A stretch of 64,000 nt of DNA from Psammoneis japonica (lineage: Eukaryota), in NCBI GenBank assembly GCA_008632985.1, contig QPGO01000026.1:372001-436000 (forward strand), written 5' to 3'. Below, in pieces: positions 13,535 through 34,999 of the stretch (position 1 is the first letter of the stretch; every line of letters starts with the position of its first letter). The notes beneath the pieces were generated by a model, which was not told the DNA's origin, searched no databases, and was given only the letters and a program-made list of their open reading frames with translations. A program made the position numbers and the translations under genes.

Positions 13535-13897
13535 GGTGGGACCTCGCACTGCTGAACTGCGACATCAACAGTTTTTTGGATCATGCTGCAGGTTGTGCAC
13601 ACAGACAGGTGTGTGACTTTGTTTTATGAAATTTTGTGTCATTTTGTGGTGCACTCTTCATTGAGCCATCTGTCCAACAACTTTTGACATTTTTTGCCAG
13701 AGCTCGATTCTACAATGTGTTGAGAATCATGCAGGGCAGGCACATTTGCAAAAACGTTGAGTGCCAAGAGGCACAAATGCACCACAAACTTGGTCATTTG
13801 TTTGATGTTGAAGACAAATTCATCCATCAATTAAATTCTTGCACTGTGGAGGTCGCACGCAGAGTTCTGCGGGCCCAATGTCACATGGAGTTCCACC
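13535..13897. mobile_element. MITE (GGTGGGAC TIR), mutated copy
   Basis: GGTGGGAC...GTTCCACC flanked by CA/CA. Colinear with the fresh copy at 34327-34682. Confidence 0.85.
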
Positions 13898-14843
13898 CAG
13901 GAACTGGAGGAGCCCATCAACACAAACTTTTGCTCTTCCCCAGTTCAGACACCCAATGACCATGTCACCCTTCAGCTCCTCCTTCCAGTGGATGGGAGGA
14001 CATTGGAGTTGGAGCAAGCTTGGCTCAAAAATCATGCAACAGGACATTCTCTTGGTGGCCGCAAAAACGTTGGGGGTCAGCAAGACAGGTGTCACACCAG
14101 TGTCTGAGATTTTTTCCATGCACCATTTCATCATTGTGCCTGCTCTGTGTTCTGACTTCAGCTGTGGGTTCTTGCGCTGAACCTCTTCCTTTTGCTGGCA
14201 GTCAACCACCGGGATCGACTTGTTGCAAACCGACTCTCCTCCCTCCATTCTCAACAGAAGCTTGTTTGTTTTTTTTTTTGCCTTGCTTCACCTGTGCCAC
14301 TCACCATGCAGTTTGACCATTTTGACCTTGTCAATCATTTCTTTCTGATGCCAAAACTCTGCAACTGTTTGTCAAACCAGTGTTGACAAGTTTGTTGGCT
14401 CGCTGACACTTTTTGCAGCATTCTCAACCTTCAAGCACTCATGTCAACATCTGGCAGTGTTGAGCATTGGGAAGTTGATTGTTCTTCCAAAGAAAACAAA
14501 ACTCCACATCGCCCAACATTGTTGGGAGCTCCAGAGTGTGCAGTGTGCCAACAAGCTCTCCACACCACAGCGGCCAGCAGGCCCTCTTCTTCATGAGGCA
14601 GGCAAGAGCTTGTTTGCTTTTTGTCTTGCTGCGTTTCATCAGTCAACATCATTTGTGTGCCATAACTGCACTGATGTGCATTGCTGGCAGAGACCAGGTG
14701 TGACTTGTGTCATGGTCTCCACGTCTGTGGCCCACTGTGGATTGTCGGTTTGTTGATGCCGCTGCAAGATACAGTAATAAATTGTGCCTTTTTGGATTGA
14801 TTTGCCCCACTGTAATCGTAAGCCCATCGCGTCTAATCATTGT

Positions 14844-16085
14844 ATGACAAACATGCCTGAGAACCTCCGGCACCGTAAAAAGAAGCAGAAGAGAAAGAAC
14901 AATGCTGAAACGACAGCAACTACTGCAAAAATAGATACTCGGACACTGCCGACCCAAAGCAGCAGATCCTCTCTCCATCAATTGCTCTACTATGTCGTTG
15001 GTGCGGTGTGTTTGTTTTGTTTGAGACGAGTCACTCATTACATTACTCTGAAACGTCCCGATTTGGTCAATCAAATCTTTCCGGGTCTTCTTCGACCGGC
15101 TGTTGATTTTATGGATCCTCGTCAAGTGTTGATTGTCGGAACCATGTCGAGCGGAACGTCTCAAGTGGCGTTTGATTTGACAACCAAGTTGGGTCTCGAG
15201 ATTGGTCACGAATTGACGGATGCACTCGATGCACACGTACGAGACGGAAGCTCCAGCTGGTTTCATGGGATACGGTTCTTTCCAGTCGAAAAGAAGCAGC
15301 ATATTATTCACGAACTGTGTTTTAACTTTACCGAGAAAATGGGATTTCATCCTCGACAGTACCACGCCACGTCTTGTTCGGAAAAGAAACCGTGGTATCC
15401 ACTCAGCGAGTGCTGGAGAAACGACTGTATTGATATTTTAAACAAGGAATGGGGCTGTGTAGCTGAAAACGGGTGCAGCGATACTCAGCCCTTTCAAAGG
15501 ACGCTGCTTCAAGTGCGAGACCCGAGAGCGACTGTCGAAAGTCTAGTTGCAAAGTTTTGCAAGGATGAAAACGAAGAGACATCGCTCTATGGAACAATGG
15601 ATGCCGACTGGCTGAAATTTCATAGCATTCTCTTTCAGCATGATTTTCAACAATACAATTGCATCGAGGCTGCCAGCTATTACGTGATGGAGTACAACAA
15701 GATTATGATTCAAGCCTATGAACAAGCCAAGGTAGGAGAAAATGATGAATTTACCAGTTCCATTGATGGCATGTACAAGGTGGAAACAACGCCGCCCTGT
15801 ACAGTTTCCAAGATGGCTGGTTTCATGGATCCCGATGCTGTCGTGTACAAGCCAAATTATGCAAAGATTCGATCCAACTGCGCTCCCGGAAGCGTTGGGA
15901 CACAGCCCATGGGATCCAGTACCAATCAAGTCAACAAGGGACGAGTGCGATTAAATTGGTCGGATTATCATGGTGGAAAATACGGCAGTACGAGGCAAGC
16001 CGGCGACGACTCGTTGGAAAAAGAAATGAGAACGTTTGTGGCGTCCCTTGGCTATGATCCAGATAGTCGGCCACCTCCCAAGTAG
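14844..16085 (+). CDS. Type II membrane sulfotransferase-like protein
   Basis: Long ORF of normal composition with one N-terminal TM helix (LLYYVVGAVCLFCL). LIVGTMSSGT resembles a 5'-PSB loop and LLQVRDP a 3'-PB motif. First ATG taken as start. Confidence 0.65.
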   Translation: MTNMPENLRHRKKKQKRKNNAETTATTAKIDTRTLPTQSSRSSLHQLLYYVVGAVCLFCLRRVTHYITLKRPDLVNQIFPGLLRPAVDFMDPRQVLIVGTMSSGTSQVAFDLTTKLGLEIGHELTDALDAHVRDGSSSWFHGIRFFPVEKKQHIIHELCFNFTEKMGFHPRQYHATSCSEKKPWYPLSECWRNDCIDILNKEWGCVAENGCSDTQPFQRTLLQVRDPRATVESLVAKFCKDENEETSLYGTMDADWLKFHSILFQHDFQQYNCIEAASYYVMEYNKIMIQAYEQAKVGENDEFTSSIDGMYKVETTPPCTVSKMAGFMDPDAVVYKPNYAKIRSNCAPGSVGTQPMGSSTNQVNKGRVRLNWSDYHGGKYGSTRQAGDDSLEKEMRTFVASLGYDPDSRPPPK

Positions 16086-16626
16086 TACGTAGAGTAAAGG
16101 CCACCAATAGAAAGAAGTGTTGTAGCAGCATGACGCTTGATAAGAAAATGCAGATGCCCCAAACCTTCAGTGCCTCTTGAGCATAGCAGTATCTTCAGCT
16201 TCTTGTCATTTCGAGGACACGTCAGTTCCAGACCAAAGCATAAGTCATGCAGTACCCCTTTTGCTTTCCCCGCAAGATGGGTCTACAACTTCTTTGTCAA
16301 TCTGAAACTTTACATAGACACAATAAGGAATTTGGTGCTAGTGCAAGGATATCAGAACGGCGCGTCAGTCTCCGTTGTCAATTTAGCCGCTACTGTACCG
16401 TGCAAATGCATGAGCAGGAAGCATCAGTCCCAAAATCAAAAATTTTCTTCGTTACTACTACTCTTTAAAGACAGCTGTACCAGTATATGGCTTGGTACTG
16501 CTGCGACAAAGTATGAAGGTTACTCCGAGAGCTGCCCATGGTGTAAGTCAAGACGGGATCGCCAGAACGAGCCTCAAAATGATTGAGAAGATCCGCTCCA
16601 GTCTTGGTCTGCTGCCGCAGCAGTCA

Positions 16627-17748
16627 TCAATTCGAACCAATCTTGATATCACAACTCATGGGGTAATGATCGCTGAGATCATTCCCACCAGCATCTGTCG
16701 GTGTCAGATACTCACAGATGGAACCTGATCCCGGTGGCACCGCATTGTCACTCGTATCATACAAGACATGATCCAAGGCACGTTGAGCATCGGTCCCCCC
16801 CGGAATGTCTGGGATAATTAGATTGTTGAGGAGTGGGTCCATGGAATATTTTGTACTGGTGGACTGTAGCTCAATATCGTCTGCACTGAGATCACTCAGC
16901 ATAATCTCATAGAGATCGGGAGTGTTGACCTTGTCCTCGTTGAAATCTCCAACCATGAGAACGAGTTCCTTCTCAATGTTCTGCTCATCCATGAAATTAC
17001 GCATTACCTCAAACTGACGCCGGCGAACGTCGTGATTTTGCACAAAGAACATCGTATGGATATTAAACACGTTGATCATGACCCCATCCTTGTCAATTCG
17101 GGCGTACGACACACCCTTGTCTACAAGACACTCGACCGGACCACAAGCGTCCCTAAAGGCCCGAAACTCATGCTTGACAATGGAATATTTGGAAAAAAGT
17201 GCCAAACCCGATCCAAACGATCCACGGTCGTCGTAAATGTAGTGACAGTATCCCGCTGCAATCATGCCATTACGGATGGCATCTTGTTGGGTCCACACTT
17301 CCTGCAGAGCCACAATGTCGTAGGAATTACCGGGTGATTGGACAAACCAATCTCCGATCCGATCGGCTCGATCTCCTAGTGCCGGAATACCGTCCGCTGC
17401 AATCAAGAGTAAAAAGAGGTTGTAGCTCAATACGAGTACAGCAGATGCATCCTTTAGAGCAGCAGCAGCAGCAGCAGCAGCAGCGCAGTTGGATAGTGAT
17501 GTGCCCTGTTGAAAGGTATAATCCTCGTCGTCGTTGTCCACACACACGCGGAGCCACGTATTGTTGTTGCATACATTATTGGAAAAGAGTCGCTGAACAC
17601 AACAACTGCTTTCACATTGGTTGCTCTTGGTGCATTCACTGCCGTTGGGAAGCAGTGTTTGAGCAGTAGCGGGAATCATCGTGCCAACGAGGACAACCAT
17701 GACGGCCGTCAACATGGAGTATACTACTTGTAGCATTGAGAGCATCAT
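16627..17748 (-). CDS. Secreted sphingomyelinase C-like EEP-superfamily phosphodiesterase with Cys-rich N-terminal module
   Basis: Signal peptide. EEP motifs SYN, LQEV, GSGLALFSKY, KG, H, GDFN, LDHVL and SDHYP. N-terminal CTKSNQCESSCC. Poly-Ala from a (GCT)n run near 17458-17484. Confidence 0.85.
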   Translation of the reverse strand: MMLSMLQVVYSMLTAVMVVLVGTMIPATAQTLLPNGSECTKSNQCESSCCVQRLFSNNVCNNNTWLRVCVDNDDEDYTFQQGTSLSNCAAAAAAAAALKDASAVLVLSYNLFLLLIAADGIPALGDRADRIGDWFVQSPGNSYDIVALQEVWTQQDAIRNGMIAAGYCHYIYDDRGSFGSGLALFSKYSIVKHEFRAFRDACGPVECLVDKGVSYARIDKDGVMINVFNIHTMFFVQNHDVRRRQFEVMRNFMDEQNIEKELVLMVGDFNEDKVNTPDLYEIMLSDLSADDIELQSTSTKYSMDPLLNNLIIPDIPGGTDAQRALDHVLYDTSDNAVPPGSGSICEYLTPTDAGGNDLSDHYPMSCDIKIGSN

Positions 17749-18392
17749 ATTATCGGTGATGATTCGGTATGAATTCAGGGCTATGGTCCAAGCTCTGCAG
17801 TAAATAACACCTCAATACTGTAGTTGGGCCATCGTTGCGGTTTGCGGTTGTTTTGTGAGCGATCTTCAGCGATCGACGATTTTTTTGGCTTCATTCGTCT
17901 GGCGGGCGAAGCGCGAGTGATGACGTGGCAATCGCGCGCTCCCTATTCGTCTGTCTTTGCCGCGACTTTTCGCATGAGCCATGATCCCACCGGTAGAGCA
18001 GATGAGGTGATAATATGAATTACTCTGAGTAAGTAAGATGTGCTTTAGCTAGCAGAGGGGCAAATGATTGATGATGCAGTAGGTTAGTTTTAACGTTATT
18101 TCTGAGTTCAGTAAAGGTCACGTTGCTGTGGTGTTTCAGTGAAGCTTCTCTACCTCTTGGTCAGGTCACATGTCAGTTGTGTTAATCTTCTTCATTTTCA
18201 ATTTTATTTTTCTTCTGCATACCCTCTAGAGATTTGTATAAGATCTTCCAACGCGACAAGCTTCATTTTAAAGTCTATTGTACATGATAAAAGACAATAC
18301 ACAAACAAACCCAAGCACCGGTTTTCAAAATTCAAAATTATTACTGCAGCCAAAACACACCACTACCGCGCACGATAACGTAGTCCCGTCCC

Positions 18393-19193
18393 TTAGCCAA
18401 ACTGTCCGCTTAGTCGTTGCTTTCTCCGCAGGACCGTGACTGTAATTTCACCCGGCAAGGCTGTCAATATGGTCGCCACTTGTTCCGGCGTGACCTCGTC
18501 GCACACAATCTCGTTGATGGAAATGAGTTGATCGTTGGGTTTGAGGGCCGTCCGCTTGAATACACTTGTCTTTTCAATCGACTTGATGCAGAGATATCCA
18601 AATTTCCAAACCACCATTCCCATTTCGTCATAGGTCATTTTTGGTTTTGGTTTGATAATCGTGGCGTGAATCAGAATATCGTCTGCGAATTCCTCCTTGT
18701 TCTTGACCATGACGGACAAAACTCCCTCCTGTTTCAGACTATCCTTCATGAGTTGCTTGGCTCGTTCGGCATTATAACTCGGGCCGATTCGTTTGTCATT
18801 GACGCTCTTAAGGTAATCCCCTGGAATGATACGAGACAATTCCAAACACCCCTCGACAGAAACAACCTTGATTGTGGAGGGCGGTCGGAGTGATAATTTG
18901 GAGCTCTTATTTCTTCGAGCGTCCGGATCGTCTTGGAGCTGTATATCCCAAATCATGGGAGGAATTTTGGGATCTTGATAAAAGGTAAAGGATTTGAGAA
19001 AGGCTTCTCTGGGCATACCAACCACCGAACCGACTTCTGAGGCAAGTTCTGTTGCTGCAACGGAGCGGTCGCTCACCAACCCCACAATCAAGGACATGTC
19101 GACCGTAGGAACAGTACTCGTCGCTCCTGTCGGGAACAAGTCATCCTCCACTTCCGATATATCAATCACTGGTTCTGTGTTGTTCGTCGTCAT
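18393..19193 (-). CDS. Protein with two PDZ-like domains
   Basis: IIPGDYLKSVNDKRI and IKSIEKTSVFKRTALKPNDQLISINE...ITVTVLR match PDZ C-terminal patterns. ATG at 19193. Confidence 0.75.
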   Translation of the reverse strand: MTTNNTEPVIDISEVEDDLFPTGATSTVPTVDMSLIVGLVSDRSVAATELASEVGSVVGMPREAFLKSFTFYQDPKIPPMIWDIQLQDDPDARRNKSSKLSLRPPSTIKVVSVEGCLELSRIIPGDYLKSVNDKRIGPSYNAERAKQLMKDSLKQEGVLSVMVKNKEEFADDILIHATIIKPKPKMTYDEMGMVVWKFGYLCIKSIEKTSVFKRTALKPNDQLISINEIVCDEVTPEQVATILTALPGEITVTVLRRKQRLSGQFG

Positions 19194-19345
19194 GGTTGTT
19201 TCGTTCTCACTACAGCACACCAAACACACAAGAAAGGTGCAGCAAAGGGAAGTGCTGCGAACATGCTGCGAACACACTCGCAAAGTTCGTGTGGTTGAAA
19301 GTTGAAAACATGCAGTCGCGCGGATCGGATTTCATCATCACGACC

Positions 19346-19552
19346 TGGGGGACGTCTTCGGAAGTGAGACTGTCGAAGAAAGTTACGTAGAATTTGTACT
19401 AAAACAGTCTGTCAATCAGTGCGATTGGGTATTTGGGACCTCTGGACAGATCCTACGTGTTTTCTTGCGCGTACAAAATGTACTGGAAAAACCCCCAAAC
19501 GCACTGGCGATCAGACCGCCTTCGACGATCTCACTTCCAAAGACGCCCCCCA
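19346..19552. mobile_element. 207-bp MITE, TIR TGGGGG.., 4-bp TSD GACC
   Basis: TGGGGGACGTCTTCGGAAGTGAGA / TCTCACTTCCAAAGACGCCCCCCA, with gacc on both sides. Near-identical inverted copy at 41719-41925. Confidence 0.92.
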
Positions 19553-19799
19553 GACCGACGTCATCGCAAATGTGAGTCGTGAAACAAGACTTAAGTCGTA
19601 TGTCCATGTCCGATTGGCACTATTCGTACACAGGCGGGTGTGCCATCCACTCAAAACGAAACATCCGTCCATCCGATCCGTCCCATGCATTCTGGCTTGA
19701 GAAAGAGACCAAGCATCGAATGGATGACACTGAGACTCACCCACAATTGAACGAAGCTCAGGTGAGATAGATCAGTCACACACATCTTCTTTTGAAACC

Positions 19800-21242
19800 A
19801 CTGCTGGTGCCTCTTGGATCTTCCTGTCGCATCATCTCATTCTTCTGCCAGCACACTCAACAAGGGAGAGGTGGCCACGGCAGCAAGTTGCTCTAACCCG
19901 GCTTTTTGTCAGTTTGTGTCAGGCACACACATGCTGCAGAGAGGATCGTTTCAACAGTGCTTGGTGGACCACAAGACCACAAGAGAGATGCCTCTACAAA
20001 GAAAGAGGGAGAATCTCTGTTTTGACACCACACAGCCAGCAGCTTGCTTCCAGGAAGCAGACCATCAAGATCTGTCAAGCACCAACAGCAGTCATCCTCT
20101 GCCTGAGATGGGAAAGTTGTTTGTGGTTTTTGCCCATTGGGCCAAGCGCTGCTGCTGCTGGCCCTGTTTCTTTGTCCCCAGGCACTGCTTGTTTGTTGGC
20201 GCAGCTGGTCATGGCGGTTGCAGCCAAAGGCAGCAGATTGCAAGTTGTGAGCTGAGCAAACTGAAGAGGGTTGTTGGCATCATGACAGGAACATCATGCA
20301 TTGCATGACCAAACATCACATTTTTGGATGGCACAAAAGCACTTGCAAGAGATGTCTGTGTTTGTCAGCTTCAAAGAGCTGCACTGCTGCCAGCCAACTT
20401 GACTTGTTGTTGAGCAATGGAAAAAGACCAAACAAGACTTGCATGTGAGCACTTCCTAAAACACCAAAAACACAGGCTGGCAGCAGCAAATGAGGAGTGT
20501 CAGCAGAAAAAAGGGGCATCATGGCTGCAGCCCCCAGCACCAAGAGATGCAACAATGGCGCACACCCCAGAGTGCATTGAGAGGTTTTTTCCACCACACC
20601 AAGGTGGCAGCCATGTTGGGGAGTCAGCAGCTTGCAACCCAGTGGGCACAGAAGTGTGCACCCAAGTGTCTTGTGAACACATTTGCTTTTTTCCACGATT
20701 CTTGGCATCGTGATGAGGTTGAAAATGAGTTTCTTGCATTTCCAGCAGGTGGGGTCATCACTCCTGCTTCTCATGGCATGTCGCCCTGCAGCTGCTTTTG
20801 CAGGACCTTCCCACAGTTCTGAATGTTGCTGCGATGCAAGCTGTTTAAAAAAGCAGAGAATGATTGTGATGACTTCCGCACTGACTTCGGCAAGTTTTGC
20901 AGTGCAACTGTTGATGGCAACGTGCTTGACCAAGGCTTTAGCACAAGGCCCGCTCCACACTGGGGCTCCAATGTCTGGGAGCACAAGGATGAGAATGCCC
21001 AGTTCGAACGCTTCGGCAGGACACTGTGCAACCCAGCTTGTGTTTCAGGTCGAACAGAACATGAAATGAAAATTGGAGATCCCTCTCTAAGCAGGCCTGG
21101 ATGGTTTCGCTTCGAGTGCAGGCACTGCAGTTTGACACATTTTAAGAATTGTTCATGGAAAGGCAAAGCCAGAGAGGGAGATCCTTTCAAGATCGTGTAC
21201 ATTCTCAGGAACAAGAAAACGGGCGAGATCACCAAAGGATAA
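19800..21242 (+). pseudogene. Unidentified degenerate coding sequence
   Basis: Protein-like fragments in + frames (20417-20713, 20823-21242), Tyr-free except the terminal KIVYILRNKK. TA/CG-depleted. Family not recognised. Confidence 0.4.
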
Positions 21243-21555
21243 AAGACAATTTTTTATTCCAGGAGCAAGTTCAAGCACTAAAGTAGCTAGAGAGAGAGAG
21301 AGATAATATCTGTAGGAAAAAGTTGAGCGCTCTAACAAGTCTCCAACAAAATTTGACTGCACGATAAAACACAGTTGCGTGACAAACCCACTGCGACGGG
21401 ATCTTAATGTTGGAATTCACTCATTGGTACGGCAGCGTGCATTCTCAAGAGTACCATCATCCTCTTTCTAGCTCTTGTAGACCTGCGGGGAAGCACACGT
21501 ATGAATATTGCGAGAAACTGCGGCGAAAGGATTTGGAGCAAAGAAAAGTATGGCG

Positions 21556-22287
21556 TTATAGATTGGCTGTCGTCTGACGATCTGTTTGCTTCTCTTGTTT
21601 TTCTTCGGCCTTACGCTTTGCTTCAGCTCGTTCGGTATTTCGTTTCTCTACAGTTCTCTTGTACGCTGGTCTCGATCGGCATAATTCTACATAGTTTGAC
21701 AACATTTCCATATCTTTGCTCGTCTTGATGTCTTCGTTATCGTCTTTGCGTTGCAGATAGTCCCATCCAATCGCGTCCGCCCAGTCCAGCATGTGAACAT
21801 ACATGATGTCTACCACACTAAATTCATTTCCCAACAAATACGGCGAAAGTTGCTTGGCCAGCACTTGGTTGGCGCTTTGGAAACTTCTTTGCGCTTCTTG
21901 AATAATGTTTGGAGTTGCTTTTCCAAAGTGCTCTCCGAGAGCGTCGTGCTTGCGATGAATCCACAATCCAGCGTCCACTTCTGATATGAGCATGTGCATG
22001 GTTTGATCAAACAACGGTCGGGGTGTTGATGTTGGTAAGAAGCGCTTGTGCAAATCTCCCAAGTACGTCAGTATGGCTCCGCTTTCAAAGATGCGTATTG
22101 TGTCGTCAGGCTGATTCTTTGTTGTAGCGATCAAGACGGGCACCTTTCCAAGAGCATGGTGCTGACGAGCCAATTTCGACCAAGGATGAGCAACCACATG
22201 TTGATATTGCACTCCCAATTCTTCCAGCATCCAAATTACACGAAAAGTACGGTACGATGTAGCACCAATCACTTTGAACGAATTCAT
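21556..22287 (-). CDS. Glutathione S-transferase
   Basis: RTFRVIWMLEELG, GKVPVL, IFESGAILTYL and PYLLGNEFSVVDI are GST N- and C-domain motifs. Confidence 0.93.
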   Translation of the reverse strand: MNSFKVIGATSYRTFRVIWMLEELGVQYQHVVAHPWSKLARQHHALGKVPVLIATTKNQPDDTIRIFESGAILTYLGDLHKRFLPTSTPRPLFDQTMHMLISEVDAGLWIHRKHDALGEHFGKATPNIIQEAQRSFQSANQVLAKQLSPYLLGNEFSVVDIMYVHMLDWADAIGWDYLQRKDDNEDIKTSKDMEMLSNYVELCRSRPAYKRTVEKRNTERAEAKRKAEEKQEKQTDRQTTANL

Positions 22288-23799: not shown

Positions 23800-23909
23800 G
23801 ACGCATCATCTTGACCATGGCCGCCACGAAAACGAGTGGCGATTCAATAGATGCGTTGGATTTCAGTGCTGTAGGCTATTCCAATTCAACGGACAAAATC
23901 TGTGTTTTC

Positions 23910-26217: not shown

Positions 26218-27520
26218 ACAAAAAATTTCAAATTCAATGGTCATTTACCTTCATCAACATAAACAACATGTGGGTCTACAGCATGGAGCACGTCAGCTCC
26301 TGAACCCCGTTGGCCTCATTGGACACGACACCAACAATGGCGACAATGGCGGTTCTGATTCAAAGCCCACAAAGCCTCCTGCCAAAAGAGCAAAAGCAGA
26401 GACTTGAGTCCTTGCCCTTTACACTGTGAAGGAAGAACAGCTAAAGAGATTGAGACAGAAGATGTGCTGCAATTGTGCCACAGGTCAACCTGCCAAACAC
26501 ATGCACCTTGTTCATGCCACTCGCATGATCAACCATGCACCTCTTGTGCTTGCTTTCACAAATGTGAGAACAAGGAAAAACTCCCAACTTGTGGCTCAAG
26601 CAATGGGGGAGATCAGATGAGAAACTGTGGAAACTTCCAACCCCCCCCCGGAAACCAGCCCACTTTGCAGCTGAAAATTTGACAACTCATGCATCAATGA
26701 CGCCCCTGATGACTCTGACAAACAAGAACAAAACAAGGCCAATGCCAAAGCCAACAAGGAAAACACCACACCCAACAATCAAGTGAAGGATGCCATTGAG
26801 GGAAGAGATGGTGTGTGAGGAGAGGTCAAGACACTGCACATCAAAAGGGGAAGATGGCAGTTGGAGAGGACAGAGAGGGCTTGGAGAGGGAGTCATCATT
26901 CCAACACAAGACGACCCCAATGTCACACCCCACAACTTCAATTTGGACAAGTGACAAATCATGTGCAAGGCATTTGGTGAGGCAGGCATGTCATCTCAAT
27001 GAAGGCACCCATGATCTTGAGCTGGAAGTGGTGTGGCTGGGAAGTGCAAGGAATGCAGATCTGACAAATCTGGGCTCTGCCAACATCATCCCATGACAGT
27101 CGCTGGCTCAGCTTCAAGCAAAAGGACAAAACCCCAGTTGTGGCATTTCCAGCATGGGTTGTTTGTTTTGAAATCAAAGACAAACGTGCTTGTCACCTTC
27201 CAGGGGTTGAGAGAGGCCAAAGCAGCCAGCACCCGCAGCTTGCATGGTTGGGGCAATGTCAAAAAATGCAGCCACACACCAAGATCACACACAGAGGTTT
27301 TTCACAAAAATTTTTTGCTGTGCAAGATGTTGAAAATGACTCTTGTGCTGGTGACATGGTGACCAGCCCAAAGCACAGAGGCGGAGCTTTGACATCTCTT
27401 GGAAAGCACAACTTTCTTGTTTTCAGCTGCAACAAACGGACCAAAAAATTCCTTTTCTTCAAAAAGTTTATGTGGTTGTGAAGCTGGGACCCAAACAACA
27501 TTCAAGCATTTTTTTGTAAA
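26218..27520 (+). mobile_element. 5' portion of a degenerate CRE-like non-LTR retrotransposon
   Basis: N-terminal Cys cluster (CCNC..STCQT..CSC...CTSCAC..CEN), then HLNEGTH. A related diverged copy lies at ~58215-59250. Confidence 0.45.
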
Positions 27521-28477
27521 CTGCGCTGTGTCATTTGATGATCAAACCAGCCACCAGCTGGTGCTCGGCTGCAGCTTGACTTTGAGCACAAACCCCAGGC
27601 GTGACTCTGCACAGCATCGCAAAACAATGTCACACACGGGAAGTTTCTAAAGTTGACAAATGATCAAATGGAGCATCAACCAGGTTGAGCAAGCTCCATC
27701 ATGGTGGGTTGAGTGCACCATGGAAGCAGCTTGAGCATGGCATCATCGCCAAAATGTGAGCTGTTTTGTGTTTGAGTTGCGAGATGAAATCCGTTCTGCC
27801 ATCACAAAGAATTGAGGGTCAAGAACTGCACAAAACAGTTTGTGATTAACAATCAAAAGGAAGGCTTCTCAAACACACGAATGATCTTGAAACTTGGACC
27901 ATTGAGCGTTCGAATCACTTGTCAACAAGCGGTTCATTTGCCGGTGTTTGATGATCTCCTACCTAATGAGAACTCATCGGTCATAGTTCTGACCTTAAGT
28001 AAGCAAAGGTGGGATCGCCACAGTGGTGCAACCCGTTAAATGTACACAACAATTATACGGAAACTGTTTCAGAAATGCTTAAATGTTCGGAATCATTTAT
28101 CAATCAGGTCATGGCATTTGAATCAGGTCATGGCATTTGATTGCCCCCAACATGGAGAACTCCTAGCTAGCTATAGGGCCCTAATAACTCATCGGTCACA
28201 ATTTTCAAAACGCGGGCGAGGTCCCGGTTCGCATTCGATAGCTACCAGTAATGTCGTAAAAGTGGGTACGAGAGGGCCGGAGAGGACACAAAAAAAGGAG
28301 AACAGAGAACAACAACAAGAAGAAAGAAAGAAAAAACGTGAAAGCTTGCGCGCACTACTGTACTGTGCATTGAACACTATTACTCGGTTTGAATTAAAGA
28401 ATTACCGCAATCACTTCGAACATAGCGAACAAGAAGCCTGTGGATTATATTGAAGTGCTCTCTCGGAAGTCCTAACC

Positions 28478-30194
28478 ATGCATCTCCACAATACACCATC
28501 CCTATCGGCACCCTGGCGCTTGACAGCACGGTTTGCACTGTTGACAATTTCAACGCTACTGCTTTTTCAGAAGTCGTCCGCCGCATTCGAATTCGTTTGT
28601 CCGATAAATGGTCAAGAGGACTCATCCTCGGAACTCCAGGCAAAAGACGAAAATGGCCCGGATTTTTCAGGTGTCTCTGGCCTGGCCTTCTCTTCCATCC
28701 AAACAGGACCTTCAGGTCAGCCTGTCATGTACGCTAACATTGATAGAGGAAACGGTAAAAGGTTGGGTATTTTTGATTCGGGTTCCGGAGAACGGTTGCT
28801 AACGCTCCAAATTCCAAGCCTTCCTTCTGCCTTTGATTGGGAGTCTCTGGCCATTGGATCGTGCGGCATTCATTGGGAGGACGAATCGTGTATCTACATT
28901 GGTGATATCGGCGATGGCCATGCAAACCAAAACGGCGGGGCTGAATCGGGAAGACAGGGAAACCCTTATCGAATCTACAAGATAAGAGAACCAGTTCTAC
29001 ACAAGTTCGATGATAATGATGTCATTCCAGCGAATGATACGTATGAATTGGAATATGATTACCACCACCCATCATCTCCCACCGAATTCGCTGACTGCGA
29101 AGCCATGTTTTTGGACCATCAGGGTTGGGGAGAAGGAGAGAGTAAAGGCGATCTTTACTTAGTTACCAAATGGGGTGCCGCCTACAAGAAGTACTATACG
29201 AGGTTGTTTCAAATTCCCGCATCTGCCTGGGATTTGTCAGAGGTTCCCTATTCACCTGCATCTGTGGGGAATTGTCCCAATGGGGGCTACTTATATGGCA
29301 GAACGTTTACAATGGCAGACATGACATTGGACGGCACTCTGATCGCTTTTGGTGGCTCAGCTAGATGCACAGTTGTATTTCCGCGATGTCCCGGTGTCAG
29401 TGTCGCCGAAGCCCTGACGGGTGACGCCGAGGGATGCGTAAAATGGCAGCATATCCCTGGTCGAACGAAAACCTTTGCATGGAGCTGGATGGAACCGAAA
29501 TCTGATCGTATCGGAACGTGAAGCGTGCGACCCTCGAGGACCGCCCTTAGCCTGGACCACAATGGATTACGATTCCCCAAATGCAACGATCATAGGGTGC
29601 CCGGATAAAGAGGCAAATGTGCAACCTGTAAGAACCACGGAAGGGTGTCCAACTGTCGTTCCACCGACAGAAGCCCCGCTTCCATTCTCTGAAGTGTTTG
29701 GTGAACTGAAGTGCCAGTACTCAGCATGCCTCGAGGAGTACAAGACAAAGTTTGACTATGCGCCTGAAGGGTTTGCAGAATTAATCCTCTCCAGATCCGA
29801 GGAAAATGTAATGGCCATCAAGAATGTGACGGACCGTGGAGACATCATTGTGTCTGCGGAAATGATGAGAGATTCGCTAAAGTTTTTTCAGGTATATCGT
29901 GCAATAGCTCTCGACGAGGGACGGCTAAATGCTCAAACGTTTGCTGACTGTGCAGGTACATTCGGAGGCAAATGCTCGCTTGACTTTCTTCGAGGCTTGA
30001 TTGAAGCGGTGGCAAATGAGGATGAGCTCACGGATGATGTCTACCTCGTGGAAGCGGAAAAGTATTTGGAGCAAGCTAAGGATTTCCTGCGCGAGAAGAG
30101 TTGGAGGCTCGCCACCTCTAGGGCCTTGTGGGGCATTAAACTTATCCTCAGAGGACTTGATGATGATGTCGTCGGCGCTCCTCACTTGTGCTAA
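28478..30194 (+). pseudogene. Secreted beta-propeller-like protein, paralog 1 (frameshifted)
   Basis: Nearly identical to 60188-61906, but two single-base deletions (~29485, ~29495) split it into ORFs 28478-29521 and 29475-30194. Could be a sequencing error. Confidence 0.8.
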
Positions 30195-31262
30195 TAATGT
30201 CTAGAAAAGGCGGCGATGTTTACGTGCTTCACTGTTGATTTGAGAGGCCGTCAGCGACTTCAATTTGCCGGGCAGATTCATGACAGCGGTGTGCCGTGTC
30301 ATGGCCCACGCAAGTTTGAATGCCCTCTATATAATACACCAAATAGTGTCCATGATTATTTAAAAGCTTTATGTGAAAATTGGTTTGATATGGATACCTA
30401 GCAAAATTGAGGACGGATAACTAACTAGAGTAGAGGGTGCTGCAATCCAAGCAAAGAGTAGGCATCCCAACTCACCGCGGAGCCTTGATGCCGTTCCAGG
30501 CTCAGATTCATCTTGAGACAAGGATCACGCATGGCCACTTTCATCGTTCCAATATATTATAGTACTCAAGATACGTCGTGAGAAACGTAAAGAAAGATCC
30601 CAATGAAATCAAATGCCTTGTTTCGTCCTTCAAATGAAGCTTGTTGGGAAAATGTGGAGCACTAGCTTGCTCATTGATAAACATGAACGAATCACACTCA
30701 AGTCAAATAGATCCGCATAAAATGAATCGGTCCACTTGTGTGCTTCTTCCTTGAGCCTTATGTATGGTGCGTATTGGTGCGTGATGTATGGTGCGTGTTT
30801 ACTTGAAGAAAGGAGTGGTGGCATGAGCCTCTTGTCCGACGAATCAGATCAAGCAACGTCAAAGTCCTTAATCATTCCCCAAGACAGGAGTCCAAACAAT
30901 AATTCCCAAAATCACTATGTGCTCGGAGGTATTGCACAAGCCCGTTACAGTACAGTAGTCAAAACAGCGCTTCTGTCACACAGCATCCGACCCATCGAGA
31001 ATACGACGAAGGACAACCACGGATTGCGATGACTCTCGGCTGAGAGCGTTGTGATGATTCGACTATTGGTCGAATATGAGAGGTGTCACCAACAAAAGGG
31101 TCGGTGACAGCAGATGGCATTGTTGTGCTCTTGTTGTTGCTTCACCAGAGAGTTGGGAAGATCGCTTCCAAAGTGAGGGTGGGAAACTGCACGCGCAAGC
31201 ATGCATGAGCACATACACGCGAATTGTGCATGAATTTGCTCTGTGTTGACGCGGATGGTTCA

Positions 31263-32174
31263 GCCCCTCCCTTATCGTCGCACAAAAACAAAAACAAAAA
31301 CGTTTTTTGTTTTCGTGACACGCGCGACGGCCTTATCGCCGAACAAAAACAAAAACACCCCTTCCATACATTTCTACGCCAAACCACGTATGTACGGATC
31401 CACGCGCTGACAATACCGGCTCCAGACGACCGCAACAAACAGAAGGGGCAAGACACGCAATGGCGTGTTCGAATCCATTTTATGACGGCAATTGTCGATC
31501 AATCATGACACAAGGCAATACAGTCGATACTATTGATTGAATGTCATCTATAGCATAAAAGATAAGGTGAAATATGGTAGCTTATGTGCAGAATACTAGT
31601 ACAACAGATCGGTTGTCAGAAAAGCACTGTTCTTGTGTCGTGTCATCACAAATGCGAATCATAAGGCGACTAGAGTGATGGCTAAGGCAAAAGTAGAACC
31701 TTATATGGCTAATAAAAATATGGCGGATTGAATAGTCACGTTCTTTCCTCCCTTCCACGTATCTTATGTGCAGAATACAGCGGATCGTTTCATCATGCTT
31801 GTGTTGTGTGGTCACAAATACAAGCCATAAGGCATCTATAGTAAAGGCTAAGGCCACAGTAGAACCATATATGACTAATGTTAATATGGAGAATTTAATG
31901 GAAAAGCTTTTTCCTCCTAATTCTACCACAAGGGGGCGCATCGCGTCGATGTGTCGATGTATCAGCCATGGTCGTCGCAGGTAGTGGATTTGTACGTGGC
32001 GAGACACGTAGCTGCGTTTTTGTGAGCATTTTTGTTTCCACAAAAACGTGGGGTCGTTTTTGTTCACGAGTACTCGTGAACAAAAACGAAAGTCTTAGTC
32101 GAGCGAGTCAATATGCAGTCGAATGGGTCAAATGCGTTTTTGTTTTTGTTTTTGTGCGACGACAAGGGAGGGGC
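31263..32174. mobile_element. Young 912-bp non-autonomous TIR element (PIF/Harbinger-like), 3-bp TSD TCA
   Basis: TIR GCCCCTCCCTT.TCGTCGCACAAAAACAAAAACAAAAACG at both ends, with tca on both sides. Empty site ggttcaggacgg at ~62969-62980. Rich in TA and CG. Confidence 0.93.
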
Positions 32175-34326
32175 TCAGGACGGTTGGGCTGGGGGGAAAC
32201 AAGCTCATGTTTGACAACATGGCCAATTCATCCGGCTCCAAGCATCAACAATGTCTTCACCACAATTGTTCACAAATGGGGAGGGAAAGGCACCTAAAAT
32301 GGCAGAGTCGCAAGAGCATCTTGATTGAACACAAATCAATCCACTGATCAGAAGCAAGTCTCAACGCAACCCACGGCAATGGCGCCAAATGCATCAGCAT
32401 GATGTTGCCACTGTTGCAATGAGGACAGCCCCCCACAAACCCACAACTGCCATCATCTCACAGTCTTGATGGTTGGCTGGGTCTTAAAGTCCTTGTCCCT
32501 GGCAGATGATGGACCACCATGACAAAGAATGGCGGCTTTTTGGGGATGCACAAGAACGTCTCAACATGCACACCACCCAGGAAGGAAAAGGAGGCACTCT
32601 TTTTAACCCTGTTCTCATCAATCGCTTTCTGAGTAACTTTTTGGGGAACCTCTAGAGGCTTGCATTTGAAGTGAGTGTGATGTTGACACCGGCAGCCCAA
32701 GACCGATTCCAGCTCTTGCTGGTGGACAAAGACAATGACTTGTTTTTGTGCCAGGTCATTTCTGCTGTGGTGGTCTGATGCATCATTGTCTTGACCTGCT
32801 TTCTCTTTAAGGTCCATTGTGTCATTTTGCTCCATTGTCTCATCATCATGTGCAGATGGTGGGAAATCAATTTCTTGTGCAGGGAGAAGGTTGCTGTTGC
32901 CCACTGCTTTAGAGCCAAACAAAACTCTTTGAGATGAGTTGGCTCAGCCAGAGTGTCCATTGCTGGCCCACAGCTGGGTGTTCTCCCTCAGCATTTGCAG
33001 CAGCAGCAGGTTCAAGAAGATGTGCAACATTCAAGGAACTTGGGTCATTGACAGTTCTGTCTGCCACCCTGTTGGAGATGACAGGGTCTTGACCCTTTGT
33101 GCAGCAGACAACGTCCTTTGCAGAACAATTTTCTGCTTGAATTTTGAGCATGGTTGCCTTCATCCCCACCCAGTGCACTCACCATGTTCATCATCAATTT
33201 CACCACTGTGCTCAGGGGCTGGCAAATGATCTTCAAGATTGATGAGCAGTTCCATCAAATCATCATTGTGGACCTTAAAAAGGTGAGTGTGAGGAGATGC
33301 TTTGCACAGATCAACTGTGTGAGTGTCTCCTTGGCAGCACTCTCTGCAGTGTGTTGCATGTGACACAGTCAGCCCAACACTCTTGGCAGCAAAGTCAGCC
33401 ATCATGGTCACTTGACTCTTCTCCCTGTCACCCACTGGTGTGCCAGTGTGACACAAATGGATGGCAGCAGCAACAAGAAGGAACTTTGCTTGACCCGTGC
33501 CTTTGGAATTTGTCATCCAAAGTGACAAGCTGCGTGAAGAATGACTCCCTCGTGACAGTGTGCTGTGGCATTTTGTTCCTCTTGTGACAAAACCTGGACA
33601 GAAGAACAACACAAAATGCACAAAAGACTTGCCTCCAGCACTGGGTGCTGGCTTGAGGAGTGGCTGGAAATTCATGTGTTTCCAATCTCTTGTTTTGAGG
33701 GAAAGCCGGTGGTGCCAAAAAAAAAGATCTCATCCAAAACCTTTGACTCTTCCCCGTTTTGTTTTTAAGAAGCCTTTTTTCAGAGCAACGAGTTTGCCAG
33801 AGCAAAGTTTCTGCTTCTGGGCATTCTGGAGCAAGGCTGGTGCAGCAACAGCAGCGATGTGCCTTTCCTTGAGGGTGCTGTGCTTGGCTTGCAAAACAGC
33901 CCAGATGAGTGCTCCTTGTGCTGCTTTTGAAACATGCCCCATGCACCTGTCAATGAAACAAACACCAAATGAGCAATGTGGACCTGTCCAAGACAAATGG
34001 GTCAAGAGCACAAAGTGCATGATGGTGGGAAGGCTTTGGTCAGAACCTTCATCTTGAATGACAGAACCTCATCTTGCTCATCAAGAAACCAAAGATCTCC
34101 CATGATGAAAGAAGGAAGGGTGTTGTTTGCCTTCACTTGGACAGTGGCCAGGTTGGCAGGAGGTGCAGTTGTCTCCAAAGGCTTGTCCTCATGCCTTGCA
34201 AAGGAAGTCAACTTCTTCCTCTGTCACCTCCATTGTGACCACAACCACCTGCATGACTGCTTCCATCATCCTGCTGGCAAGTTTGTTCCGTGATGACAAT
34301 GATGCAAGCGACGCGTTCCAGGTCTA

Positions 34327-34682
34327 GGTGGGACCTCGTACTACTGAACTGTGACATCGATAGTTTTTTGAATCACGTCGTATGTCGCGCACGTAGATTT
34401 CTACGTGATTTTTTTGATATTTTGTGTCATTTTACGGTACACTTATTGAGCGATCCGTCCAACAACTTTTGACATTTTTTGTTACAGCGCGATTCTATAA
34501 TGTCTTAAGAATCGCGTAGGGCAGGTGCATTTGCAAAAACGTCGAGTGGTAAGAGGCATAATTGTACCACAAACTTGGCCGTTTATTTGATGTTGAAGAT
34601 AAATATATCCATTAATTAAATTCTCGTACTGCGGAGCTCGCACGTAGAATTCTACGGGCCCAATGTCACACGGAGTCCCACC
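34327..34682. mobile_element. MITE (GGTGGGAC TIR, TA TSD), largely unmutated copy
   Basis: TA|GGTGGGAC...GTCCCACC|TA. Retains TA and CG inside a depleted block. Confidence 0.9.
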
Positions 34683-34999
34683 TAGGGCTGGAACGCGTCG
34701 CCAACAACAACACAGACTGTTGTGCATGTGCACAAATGCGAGGTTGCAAAAATTGCTGACTGCACCAGCAGAAGTCCCGCACAAATGCAAGAAAGAGAGC
34801 ATGCACCTGCACAATGGTGAAAATTTCAATCTTTGCAAGAACAGCTCAATGCAGCAAAAACCTGATGTGAACCTTCTTCTCAGACACACCAGATGTGCTG
34901 TGCCTGATTCAAACAGTGCTCAACACTCAGCTCTGCCAGCTGCATGACAACTCACAAACAAAGTGTCGCACAACAATGTAGACTGACAGAGCAGCAGCT

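Follow-up and report, generated by a model that had tools for sequence, protein, structure and literature searches.

Results

Two kinds of block in one stretch of DNA

Which process removes TpA, together with CpG, from the DNA of a diatom, and what does it strike? The question was raised by two copies of a MITE, and we have addressed it in one 64-kb stretch of DNA (hereafter the window) from Psammoneis japonica, a pennate diatom without a close sequenced relative. The loss of TA and CG to CA and TG, which the original prediction had reported from the two MITE copies, is confirmed, and its extent is much larger. Across the window, the observed/expected ratio (O/E) is 0.27 for TA, 0.51 for CG and 1.57 for both CA and TG; TA O/E falls below 0.2 in 75 of 128 windows of 500 bp, whereas a mononucleotide shuffle gives a mean of 1.00 (sd 0.14) and a minimum of 0.64. 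The composition is bimodal, with 38.3 kb depleted and 25.7 kb normal, and the edges between blocks are about 100–300 bp wide. Gene blocks have an ordinary dinucleotide content (TpA O/E about 0.6, CpG about 0.95), while in the non-genic, transposon-rich blocks TpA stands at 0.04–0.17, CpG at 0.15–0.49 and CpA/TpG at 1.5–2.0. Expressed as frequency ratios of depleted to normal blocks, this amounts to 0.10 for TA, 0.28 for CG, 1.53 for CA/TG and 1.02 for AA. Any Pfam match was found for 3 of the 298 ORFs in depleted blocks. Within the window, the nuclear DNA of this diatom is divided into spared blocks, where genes lie with flanks of a few hundred bases, and depleted intergenic blocks of mostly decayed transposons (values are O/E):

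1–1950, depleted block: TA 0.06, CG 0.19, CA 1.76, TG 2.02
1951–6250, spared gene block: TA 0.58, CG 0.96
3752–5671, minus strand, Duc1-domain gene (Pfam) within the preceding block, with diatom homologues
6251–14750, depleted block: TA 0.05–0.07, CG 0.27–0.34, with a less depleted 300-bp patch at 10101–10400
14751–19750, spared gene block with Exo_endo_phos and PDZ genes (Pfam): TA 0.59, CG 0.98
19751–21100, depleted block of single-copy depth (contig depth 63): TA 0.08, CG 0.25
21101–24650, spared gene block with a GST gene (Pfam): TA 0.56, CG 0.91
24651–27900, partly to fully depleted block: TA 0.08–0.36
27901–32250, spared gene block with one copy of a diatom-specific gene family: TA 0.60–0.64, CG 0.89–0.96
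32251–41600, depleted block containing the young MITE (34310–34722): TA 0.05–0.07, CG 0.15
44401–59650, depleted block containing a gypsy element: TA 0.04–0.08, CG 0.15–0.49
62901–64000, depleted block, twin of 32172–33203: TA 0.11, CG 0.27

The three copies of the diatom-specific gene family (in 27901–32250, 41601–44400 and 59651–62900) are 83.5–94.6% identical and have homologues in Attheya and Cylindrotheca. The block at 62901–64000 is 98.6% identical to its twin, from which it differs by 12 transitions and 2 transversions. A partly depleted fragment of a PIF1-like helicase lies at the right edge of the gene block 21101–24650, the block that follows ends on the right with one depleted portion (27203–27900) of a segmental duplication, and small CG-keeping patches occur at about 49901–50950 within the block 44401–59650.

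The letters of the assembly are reproduced in contigs of a public run, a comparison made at contig level with three public runs of one sample and one study that are possibly the assembly's own source. Contigs of run X1 differ from the window at 2 positions over 19525–24022 (a 4.5-kb contig spanning the depleted block 19751–21100), 2 over 26308–27652, 5 over 32175–33091 and 8 over 33155–34270.

Young and old MITE copies

The MITE copies were found where the original prediction had placed them, and the six pairs of short strings that it quoted are all present in the pairwise alignment of the young and old copies.

34310–34722, plus strand, young unmutated MITE (the 34327–34682 of the original prediction, extended at either end by about 17 bp of flank that the copies share): TA O/E 0.90, CG 1.56
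13518–13932, plus strand, old hypermutated copy 1: TA 0.11, CG 0.38, CA 2.2, TG 1.65
1675–1862, plus strand, old hypermutated partial copy 2, about 76% identical to the young copy: TA 0.09

By BLAST, the young copy and old copy 1 are 80.4% identical over 363 columns, and the third, partial copy is detected at 1675–1852. The young copy has 27 TA and 24 CG and old copy 1 has 3 and 7, while CA plus TG rises from 45 to 85. With the young copy taken as the ancestor, A>G is found at 23 of 54 TpA adenines and at 7 of 151 elsewhere (AA 3/66, CA 2/45, GA 2/40; Fisher p 4e-10), about 9-fold higher in the TA context than in the others, and C>T at 16 of 48 CpG and 3 of 97 other sites (p 1e-6). The original prediction would have fallen had A>G been no more frequent at TA than in the other three contexts, which is not what the counts show. 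The young copy's TA sites read CA or TG in old copy 1 at 25 of 29 (2 TA, 2 other) and, when both old copies are scored, at 39 of 44 (2 TA, 3 other), although the two may have a partly common history and the sites are then not fully independent; at at least five of the young copy's TA sites one old copy has CA and the other TG. The original prediction had also read the terminal TA as target-site duplications turned into CA or TG in old copies. The CA and TG are there, but the call as duplications is insecure because homology between the copies (34310–34722 with 13518–13932 in the flank alignments) extends about 17 bp past this TA, which may instead be internal to the MITE.

The MITE family is very abundant, with a summed contig depth of 144,535 (bin 34043–34699) against about 60 for single-copy DNA. 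The young copy is unmutated though it lies inside the depleted block 32251–41600, which implies that the process is slower than the most recent burst of transposition, comes in episodes or depends on some further trigger.

A degraded gypsy element and the direction of change

The block 44401–59650 holds a degraded Ty3/gypsy element, in a part (54051–56850) with TA at 0.08 and CG at 0.49:

53664–54038, minus strand, LTR, 88% identical to 57354–57732
54161–55630, minus strand, pol remnant with RNase H, integrase zinc finger and integrase core (Pfam PF17917, PF17921, PF00665)
57354–57732, minus strand, second LTR, pairing with 53664–54038

Transitions account for 33 of the 35 substitutions between the LTRs (41 of 43 with another aligner) and 27 (33) lie in Y-R steps; CA in one LTR faces TG in the other at 6 sites (9). 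The pol remnant has one in-frame TGA and no Tyr in 490 residues, whereas Tyr content is at least 3.1% in 120 of the 120 homologues listed. Of 15 columns with at least 70% Tyr in 60 homologues none has kept it (His 7, Cys 4, others 4), while 198 of 310 other conserved residues are kept. Moreover, Ile has become Thr or Met at 12 of 24 positions, Arg has become His, Gln or Cys at 7 of 23, and Thr has become Ala at 7. The sole outside relative of the element that was found has a TA O/E of 0.95.

CA in one copy and TG in the other implies an ancestral TA or CG. Depleted pairs have 23 such discordant sites over 2,655 aligned bp, gene-block pairs 2 over 7,659 bp. Three independent polarisations, namely the MITE comparison, this discordance and the loss of Tyr from gypsy pol, thus show that TpA is ancestral, as was originally supposed of the TA-rich MITE copy. 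The segmental duplication diverged by 64 of 640 positions (10%) in its depleted part, where 27203–27900 and its twin 58961–59650 have 9 CA/TG discordant sites, and by 52 of 3,335 (1.6%) in its genic part, with 4 TA-type and 8 CG-type differences. Because the LTRs of one element differ and the duplication diverged mainly in its depleted part, sequence comparison shows that the changes arose in situ, on DNA.

Two processes and their contexts

Two processes are seen, each nearly complete in depleted blocks: TpA becomes TpG or CpA, through an A:T to G:C transition that can affect the adenine of either strand, and CpG becomes TpG or CpA. Survival of xTAy, measured against gene-rich DNA in place of the actual ancestral repeats, fits additive rates (T 2.9, C 1.9, G 0.9, A 0.4); the mutated adenine prefers 5'-T-A-Y, in the order 5'-TAT > TAC > TAG > TAA. 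For 22 asymmetric MITE sites, the flank rates give the mutated strand correctly in 18 cases (p 0.004). TpA and CpG loss co-occur (r = 0.83, 128 windows), the TpA process being the faster of the two: its loss runs ahead, some blocks being TpA-poor yet retaining much of their CpG, and the reverse is never seen (five of the 128 windows combine TA below 0.2 with CG of at least 0.6, and none the opposite). The gain of G+C through TpA changes is offset by its loss through CpG changes, so that overall G+C stays near 48%. Simulating the two processes on gene-block sequence gives the depleted composition (trinucleotide log-ratio correlation 0.986; G+C 0.469 against 0.482 observed). GpC rises less in the simulation (1.10) than is observed (1.30), as do AGC/GCC, so that some additional minor process may contribute or the blocks may have started from another composition.

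Discussion

What is targeted

Largely silent sites of gene-block ORFs (codon position 3|1: TA O/E 0.64, CG 0.88) are undepleted, as are the 8.8 kb of gene-block DNA outside ORFs (TA 0.65, CG 0.96) and an abundant 207-bp repeat. Conversely, depleted stretches include DNA of single-copy depth without a recognisable transposon protein. The sparing of genes, of their non-coding flanks and of duplicated host genes means that targeting works by whole blocks, unlike RIP. The original prediction described the mutation as transposon-targeted, which does not hold: the target is whole non-genic blocks, and the young MITE, the 207-bp repeat and the duplicated host gene family are unmutated. Its core, a second process, distinct from CpG decay, that converts the A of 5'-TA to G in silenced DNA whichever strand carries it, stands, with repeats and transposons as such dropped as the target.

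Precedent and mechanism

A 2026 preprint describes TpA-only hypermutation in the chlorarachniophyte Bigelowiella natans, directly seen in mutation-accumulation lines and accompanied by almost no G:C>A:T changes (bioRxiv 10.64898/2026.01.13.699255). As reported there, B. natans has the TpA part alone, whereas TpA loss and CpG decay are found together in the diatom window. No report of TpA hypermutation in diatoms was found in the literature, and the original prediction knew of none; a description does exist for B. natans. Our overall reading, which we consider probable, is that two context-specific transition processes act in silent blocks, including a targeted TpA hypermutation that serves genome defence. 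The CpG part would be ordinary deamination of 5-methylcytosine in methylated repeats, and the TpA part, by analogy, the same kind of targeted hypermutation as in B. natans. The TpA process would be aimed by a silent, methylated chromatin state and not by sequence duplication. As the leading candidate enzyme we tentatively suggest a TadA/ADAT-like adenine deaminase that acts on DNA, a suggestion still more likely wrong than right.

A modified thymine is the strongest competitor, if an unlikely one: a TET/JBP-type dioxygenase would make 5hmU or 5fU at TpA in silent chromatin, and mispairing with G would give T>C. A>G on one strand and T>C on the other are indistinguishable in sequence, the flanking preference can be written just as well as R-T-A, with A or G 5' of T, and 5hmU is enriched at TpA in dinoflagellate DNA. 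However, the authors of the B. natans preprint favour adenine deamination, as a proposal (bioRxiv 10.64898/2026.01.13.699255).

Two further mechanisms, both improbable and to about the same degree, would tie the TpA and CpG losses together and draw on their occurrence in the same blocks. In one, T:G mismatch patches arising from 5-methylcytosine deamination are resynthesised by a Pol-eta-like polymerase that mutates WA. This candidate of the original prediction is disfavoured: ApA is no target, A>G at AA (3/66) being close to that at CA and GA and AA frequency being unchanged (1.02). Moreover, TpA loss is more complete and precedes CpG loss, as in the five windows mentioned and in 54051–56850, and the B. 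natans process shows almost no G:C>A:T (bioRxiv 10.64898/2026.01.13.699255). In the other, a single deaminase active on A and C alike would attack TpA and CpG, the self-complementary Y-R steps; the same preprint cites reports of ADAT2-type enzymes that act on A as well as C in DNA. However, the degree of one loss is not tied to that of the other, CpG decay is already explained by the CG methylation described for diatom transposons (PMC9998398), and B. natans is reported to show the TpA part alone. In addition, when TA and CG changes are compared by strand, MITE copy 1 (TA>CA 16, TA>TG 7; CG>TG 13, CG>CA 4) and gypsy pol (Tyr>His 7, Tyr>Cys 4; Arg>His/Gln 6, Arg>Cys 1) disagree.

Still less probable is that nothing is targeted, and that purifying selection keeps genes normal under a genome-wide TpA/CpG mutation bias. 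Normal blocks do coincide with genes, and depleted blocks are nearly without recognisable coding capacity. Against this stand the undepleted silent sites and non-ORF DNA of gene blocks, the sharp block edges, the normal composition of the young MITE and the 207-bp repeat, and the duplication, in which the few TA- and CG-type differences of the genic part adjoin a part that is 10% diverged.

An artefact, in which methylated CpG and modified TpA are read as TG or CA through miscalls or polishing, is very improbable. Modified bases do cause systematic miscalls in some long-read data, and the supporting runs come from one sample, perhaps the assembly's own source. However, the separate assembly of run X1 has the same letters across depleted single-copy DNA, with 2 to 8 differences. 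Nor would miscalls yield copy-specific CA-versus-TG choices, indels and graded ages, or the coherent Tyr>His/Cys and Ile>Thr/Met pattern of the decayed pol, or spare a young copy inside a depleted block.

Least probable of all is an RNA route, ADAR-like A-to-I hyperediting of transposon transcripts fixed via reverse transcription and insertion: ADARs like a 3' G, which is disfavoured in the window, and this candidate was rejected as contradicted by the LTRs of a single insertion, which differ at affected sites, and by the in-place change of MITE copies (a DNA transposon), tandem duplicates, the segmental duplication and single-copy non-coding DNA. It has in its favour that ADARs prefer U 5' of the edited A, as stated in the Discussion of the preprint (bioRxiv 10.64898/2026.01.13.699255).

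Returning to targeted TpA hypermutation alongside CpG decay, its role would be genome defence: DNA that invades the genome would irreversibly lose its reading frames and motifs. The footprint in P. japonica would then be that of a targeted, DNA-mutating defence that has so far been reported once only, in the unrelated alga of the preprint.

Two states of dinucleotide composition

Taken whole, the 64 kb have an observed/expected ratio (O/E) of 0.27 for TpA, of 0.51 for CpG and of 1.57 for both CpA and TpG. By sliding window, the gene-bearing blocks (25.7 kb in total; termed normal here) have a TpA O/E of about 0.6 and a CpG O/E of about 0.9–1.0, whereas the non-genic, depleted blocks (38.3 kb in total) have values of 0.04–0.17 for TpA, 0.15–0.49 for CpG and 1.5–2.0 for CpA/TpG. 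TpA O/E is below 0.2 in 75 of the 128 windows of 500 bp; the null, a mononucleotide shuffle, has a mean of 1.00, a standard deviation of 0.14 and a minimum of 0.64. Expressed as frequency in depleted relative to normal DNA, TpA stands at 0.10 and CG at 0.28, while AA is unchanged (1.02) and the G+C content is about 0.48 in blocks of both kinds. The boundaries between the blocks are sharp, only 100–300 bp wide. The loss of TpA and CpG, which the original prediction had claimed from a pair of MITE copies, is thus borne out, and the sliding O/E scan extends it across the window, beyond the MITE copies.

Small patches at 49901–50950, within a depleted block, have normal CpG (1.06–1.14) and reduced TpA (0.23–0.39), and could be recent insertions caught early in the TpA process. 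Separately, a short tandem array at 51914–52144, its copies 100% identical at offsets of 50 and 100 bp, stops exactly at the sole N of the window (52145), a possible sign of an assembly gap or of repeat collapse.

Features of the window
1675–1862: old, partial MITE copy
13518–13932: old MITE copy
34310–34722: young MITE copy
19346–19552 and 41719–41925: 207-bp repeat, copies on opposite strands, 98.5% identical
23875–24855 (+): PIF1-like helicase fragment at the edge of a gene block, possibly a Helitron remnant
27203–33203 and 58961–64000: segmental duplication of about 5–6 kb, carrying a gene of about 580 aa
32054–32089: 36-bp palindrome without mismatches, at the right-hand border of a gene block; adjoining it, 41 bp of 31262–31302 are repeated inverted at 32135–32175
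42265–44444: third paralogue of the gene of about 580 aa, 83.5% identical
53664–54038 (−) and 57354–57732 (−): LTRs of a degraded Ty3/gypsy element
54161–55630 (−): pol remnant of the same element

Gene content of the blocks

The normal blocks carry a Duc1-domain gene whose best relatives, none above about 50% identity, come from raphid pennate diatoms (Epithemia, Fistulifera, Nitzschia, Cylindrotheca and Seminavis); the organism is thus a diatom without a close relative in the protein collection. They also carry genes for an endonuclease/exonuclease/phosphatase, a PDZ protein and a GST, as well as three copies of the family of about 580 aa, with homologues in Attheya and Cylindrotheca. This family is diatom-specific and has no Pfam domain, and contig depth across the gene is 4–7 times that of single-copy DNA. 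A search of the ESM Atlas with a 584-aa ORF gave no match at 0.9 or above, and a tRNA scan of the window found none.

Besides the degraded Ty3/gypsy element and the old MITE copies, the depleted blocks contain much unrecognisable DNA. Many long open frames run through this DNA because the TAA and TAG stop codons have been lost; among the 298 stop-to-stop frames of at least 70 aa that lie mostly within it, three match Pfam (E ≤ 0.001), namely two pieces of gypsy pol and one weak zinc finger. The 1-kb window at 24001–25000, over the PIF1-like fragment, has TA at 0.27 and CG at 0.61; as it is only partly depleted, the fragment seems to be midway through the process.

Direction and context of the changes

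The two MITE copies lie where the original prediction had placed them, and all six of the string pairs that it quoted are found in their alignment. Aligned to the window by BLAST, the young copy matched the old copy (80.4% identity) and the partial one at 1675–1852. With the young copy taken as ancestor, A>G has struck 23 of 54 adenines in TpA, compared with 3/66 in ApA, 2/45 in CpA and 2/40 in GpA (Fisher p = 4e-10), an excess at TpA for which the comparison had been set beforehand. C>T has struck 16 of 48 cytosines in CpG and 3 of 97 in other contexts (Fisher p = 1e-6). Compared with the two old copies, the 44 TpA sites of the young copy read CA in 25 cases, TG in 14, TA in 2 and otherwise in 3.

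Were the TA-rich copy the derived one, the old copies would be expected to agree with each other; instead, they are discordant (CA in one, TG in the other) at no fewer than five sites where the young copy reads TA, and by single steps such discordance can arise from a TA (or CG) ancestor only. When every repeat pair of the window is counted, the pairs in depleted DNA show CA/TG discordance at 23 sites in 2,655 aligned bp, and those in gene blocks at 2 sites in 7,659 bp. A 27-letter degenerate pattern for further MITE copies had 0 matches in metagenomes.

The gypsy pol protein provides a polarisation that is independent of any DNA copy, for which 60 of the 120 homologues listed were aligned. 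The remnant has no tyrosine in 490 residues (one in-frame TGA being read as X), whereas the 120 homologues listed contain at least 3.1% (median 4.0%), and none of them is Tyr-poor. At the 15 columns with Tyr in at least 70% of the aligned homologues the element reads His at seven and Cys at four, the other four being single cases of Leu, Phe, Ile and Pro; TAY was turned into CAY or TGY. By comparison, 198 of 310 other conserved positions retain their residue (among them Phe at 9/10, Trp at 9/10 and His at 8/9; p = 4e-7 versus Tyr). Conserved Ile is kept at 6 of 24 positions, with Thr at 6 and Met at 6, consistent with ATA>ACA/ATG; seven Thr>Ala replacements are consistent with T|AC>T|GC over the codon boundary, and the change of Arg to His, Gln or Cys at 7 of 23 positions with CGN>CAN/TGN. 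The protein therefore agrees with the discordant MITE copies that the TA-rich state is ancestral. The metagenome contigs searched for relatives of this pol yielded one locus, of 41% identity and normal composition, and no second organism with the signature.

Two separable processes and a flanking preference

Although the losses of TpA and CpG are correlated across windows (r = 0.83), five windows of 500 bp have TpA below 0.2 with CpG of at least 0.6, none has CpG below 0.4 with TpA of at least 0.4, and the gypsy pol block (54051–56850) has TpA at 0.08 with CpG at 0.49. It follows that TpA is lost faster or earlier than CpG, and we read the change of CpG to TpG/CpA as a second, separable process.

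Among the ten xTAy tetranucleotides, survival (depleted/normal) runs from 0.000 for ATAT and 0.008 for ATAC/GTAT to 0.298 for CTAA/TTAG and 0.446 for TTAA. An additive model, calculated by hand, gives adenine rates of about 2.9, 1.9, 0.9 and 0.4 with T, C, G and A, respectively, as the 3' neighbour; viewed from the opposite strand, the preference is for a purine before T. These rates foretell the strand hit at 18 of 22 asymmetric polarised MITE sites (binomial p = 0.004). CpG survival (0.16–0.56) is less variable than that of TpA and is lowest beside T/A. Coupling of the CpG and TpA changes by strand would distinguish a pair of lesions that both fall on pyrimidines from a pair of deaminations on the same strand; here, the two polarised data sets (MITE copy and gypsy pol) point in opposite ways.

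When the TpA and CpG processes alone were imposed on gene-block sequence, the simulation gave a CA/TG ratio of 1.51 (observed, 1.53) and an AT ratio of 0.90 (observed, 0.81), with a trinucleotide log-ratio correlation of 0.986. The observed G+C of 0.482 compares with simulated values of 0.469 for the two processes combined, 0.507 when only TpA is lost and 0.430 when only CpG is lost. The misfit lies in GpC, which rises to 1.10 in the simulation and to 1.30 in the depleted DNA.

Error-prone repair of the Pol-eta kind, similar to the WA mutagenesis of somatic hypermutation and among the candidates originally put forward, predicts A>G to be raised at TpA and at ApA alike. The first is observed, but in this small sample ApA (3/66) is no higher than CpA (2/45) or GpA (2/40), and the loss of TpA outruns that of CpG; taken together, these two points disfavour the Pol-eta mechanism.

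Presence of the changes in sequencing data

Another possibility is that the TG and CA bases are an artefact. The stretch is present in three public runs, all from one sample of one study that may be the assembly's own source, and the evidence from them consists of contigs, which show presence and not allele frequencies; no RNA run carrying the stretch is listed. However, the changes have an internal evolutionary consistency that speaks against an artefact, and in single-copy depleted DNA the independently assembled contigs of one of these runs (X1) carry the same letters and are near-identical to the window.

Differences between X1 contigs and the window
19525–24022: 2 letters differ
26308–27652: 2 letters differ
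32175–33091: 5 letters differ
33155–34270: 8 letters differ

Both of the differences in the first contig are of the expected kinds, ggCgc>ggTgc (CpG>TpG) and aaTat>aaCat (TpA>CpA). At the contig level, the TG and CA bases are thus present in the sequencing data.

Confinement to non-genic DNA

A genome-wide mutation bias filtered by selection does not fit the distribution of the changes. The codon 3|1 dinucleotide in gene-block ORFs, where T>C is mostly silent, keeps TpA at 0.64 and CpG at 0.88; non-ORF DNA of the gene blocks (8.8 kb) keeps them at 0.65 and 0.96; and the block edges are too abrupt (100–300 bp). Genes, gene flanks and silent codon sites are all spared.

Duplication was considered as the trigger and rejected: the three copies of the host gene, 83.5–94.6% identical, are normal in composition, and the block at 19751–21100 is depleted at single-copy contig depth. 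The youngest repeats, that is, the MITE at 34310–34722 and the 207-bp repeat, are unmutated. The MITE occurs in very many copies, with contig depths that sum to 144,535, versus about 60 for single-copy DNA. The copies of the 207-bp repeat have normal TA and CG and lie at gene-block edges; its bin depth of about 4,900, against the same single-copy value of about 60, makes it a second very abundant young element. Since duplication is not the trigger and both genes and the youngest repeats are spared, we infer that the target is the chromatin state of non-genic DNA. Although the depleted blocks include transposon remnants, transposons as such are not the target: the young MITE is spared and a single-copy block is hit. 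The core of the original interpretation, A>G in the 5'-TA context on both strands alongside CpG decay, stands, while its target, its supposed target-site duplications and its view of the literature are corrected.

Changes made in place, on DNA

The LTRs of one element are identical at insertion. Those of the gypsy element have since accumulated 35 substitutions between them, of which 33 are transitions (43 and 41 with MAFFT, which aligns the microsatellite end otherwise), so that transversions account for 2 among 35–43 differences; 27 of the 35 (MAFFT, 33 of 43) lie in pyrimidine-purine (Y-R) steps, and 6 sites (MAFFT, 9) are CA/TG discordant. In the segmental duplication (27203–31263 versus 58961–62975), the depleted part has diverged at 64 of 640 positions (10%; 49 transitions, 15 transversions and 9 discordant sites) and the genic part at 52 of 3,335 (1.6%; 28 transitions, 24 transversions and no discordant site). 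The adjoining duplicated stretch (32172–33203) and its twin (62969–64000), both strongly depleted, differ at 14 of 1,032 positions, a low divergence that fits a target-limited process if the stretch was already depleted when copied.

ADAR-type RNA editing fixed by retrotransposition is ruled out by these differences, as it predicts that both LTRs are alike and that retro-copies alone are hit, whereas the LTRs differ at 27–33 Y-R-step positions and MITEs, tandem duplicates and a segmental duplication have all been altered in place. The transitions at TpA, on either strand, and at CpG are made at the DNA level, in place and within confined blocks.

Relation to known systems

Repeat-induced point mutation (RIP) of ascomycete fungi makes TpA from CpA/TpG, lowers G+C and is triggered by duplication. 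The process described here is, like RIP, irreversible, transition-only and dinucleotide-specific, and it too destroys transposons, with a strong skew, and leaves a mosaic of mutated and normal blocks. In contrast to RIP, however, it destroys TpA (0.10 of normal), keeps G+C at 0.48, spares host-gene duplicates of 83–95% identity and hits single-copy DNA. With the direction opposite and duplication not the trigger, it is not RIP.

CpG decay by deamination of 5-methylcytosine (5mC) is known from methylated transposons of vertebrates and plants. Its hallmarks (C>T at CpG, low CpG O/E, an excess of TpG/CpA and confinement to repeats) are found here and explain one of the two processes; it cannot, however, remove TpA, the loss of which is both stronger and earlier than that of CpG. 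Diatom transposons are CG-methylated via DNMT5a, and RID-related DNMT4 genes are present in diatoms, with no mention of hypermutation in the parts of that paper drawn on here (PMC9998398).

The CpG part would then result from 5mC deamination, whereas the TpA part would be enzymatic, directed by silent chromatin, and may serve as genome defence. APOBEC3/AID edit cytosine in DNA and ADAR edits adenine in RNA, restricting foreign nucleic acids. The TpA process would have in common with these systems the use of editing as defence, and TadA-type enzymes act on A after U/T; the natural site of TadA is U-A-C-G. We know of no natural DNA adenine deaminase demonstrated as a genome defence. Of the context expected for a TadA/ADAT-type enzyme, the 5' T is found and a 3' C is good (rate 1.9), but a 3' T is better (2.9), and the TadA-like preference (U/T before A, C after) is thus matched in part only. 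One engineered variant, of the TadA-8e type, is described as preferring Y-A-C on DNA (PMC13109818). No deaminase domain was found among the window ORFs scanned. Deaminated adenine and modified thymine would have the same outcome in sequence, by which they cannot be told apart.

Literature searches found no description of TpA hypermutation in diatoms. The original view that the phenomenon had not been described thus holds for this group but not elsewhere, because a preprint reports it in the chlorarachniophyte Bigelowiella natans (Mettrop et al., bioRxiv 10.64898/2026.01.13.699255). In mutation-accumulation lines of that alga, two integrated viral regions are reported to mutate about 1000 times faster than the remaining genome, a rate visible in real time and in some lines only; nearly all the changes are A>G/T>C, and all lie at TpA. 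Among its coding sequences, those poor in TpA show an enrichment of reverse-transcriptase and DDE domains. As the agent, the authors put forward a DNA adenine deaminase similar to ADAT2. The words "diatom", "CpG", "context" and "trinucleotide" do not occur in the preprint text, the supplements of which may hold context data (bioRxiv 10.64898/2026.01.13.699255).

As far as the preprint describes them, the two cases share the restriction of A>G/T>C to TpA, with TpG/CpA as the product on either strand; long-term TpA depletion with CpA/TpG enrichment, reverse-transcriptase and DDE genes being among the depleted sequences of B. natans; and a restriction to silent or foreign DNA in an otherwise normal genome, which here is seen as confinement to blocks that are presumably silent. 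They differ in that B. natans is a rhizarian and the present organism a stramenopile, and in that the rate in B. natans was measured directly in mutation-accumulation lines whereas here the footprint alone is seen. The reported B. natans footprint is mild (TpA rho of 0.45 in the NCLDV region, 124 clusters genome-wide), while here 60% of the window has a TpA O/E of about 0.05. Moreover, CpG decay (C>T at 16 of 48 cytosines in CG; CG at 0.28 of normal) accompanies the TpA process here, unlike in B. natans, where G:C>A:T changes are almost absent, and a preference for a 3' pyrimidine is seen. The present case is a second organism for TpA-specific hypermutation, from a different supergroup branch, and adds a far larger footprint, CpG decay and a flanking preference.

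Significance

For annotators, most transposon relics in such genomes escape protein searches: in the depleted DNA 3 of 298 ORFs gave a match, and tyrosine codons are gone. Where frames stay open over long distances in such DNA, the cause is the loss of TAA/TAG stop codons. It is possible, if somewhat unlikely, that diatoms, and perhaps SAR generally, have a chromatin-guided DNA adenine-editing defence, in which a natural "adenine base editor" (5'-T-A-Y) would be recruited to methylated silent DNA and, together with 5mC deamination, would erase both self-complementary Y-R dinucleotides, most of the non-genic DNA here having been rewritten at constant G+C. The footprint predicts that an adenine editor of DNA, with a defined sequence preference, exists in nature. 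Deaminase or dioxygenase genes common to the species with the signature and absent from others would offer a comparative handle on the enzyme, and the scale of the footprint and the diatom host make it approachable by comparison and genetics. So far, TpA-specific hypermutation of silent DNA has been known from one organism, in one preprint of 2026; a diatom footprint on a far larger scale would mean that it is not peculiar to one rhizarian, and it could be a major, possibly ancient, route of genome defence in ecologically dominant algae.
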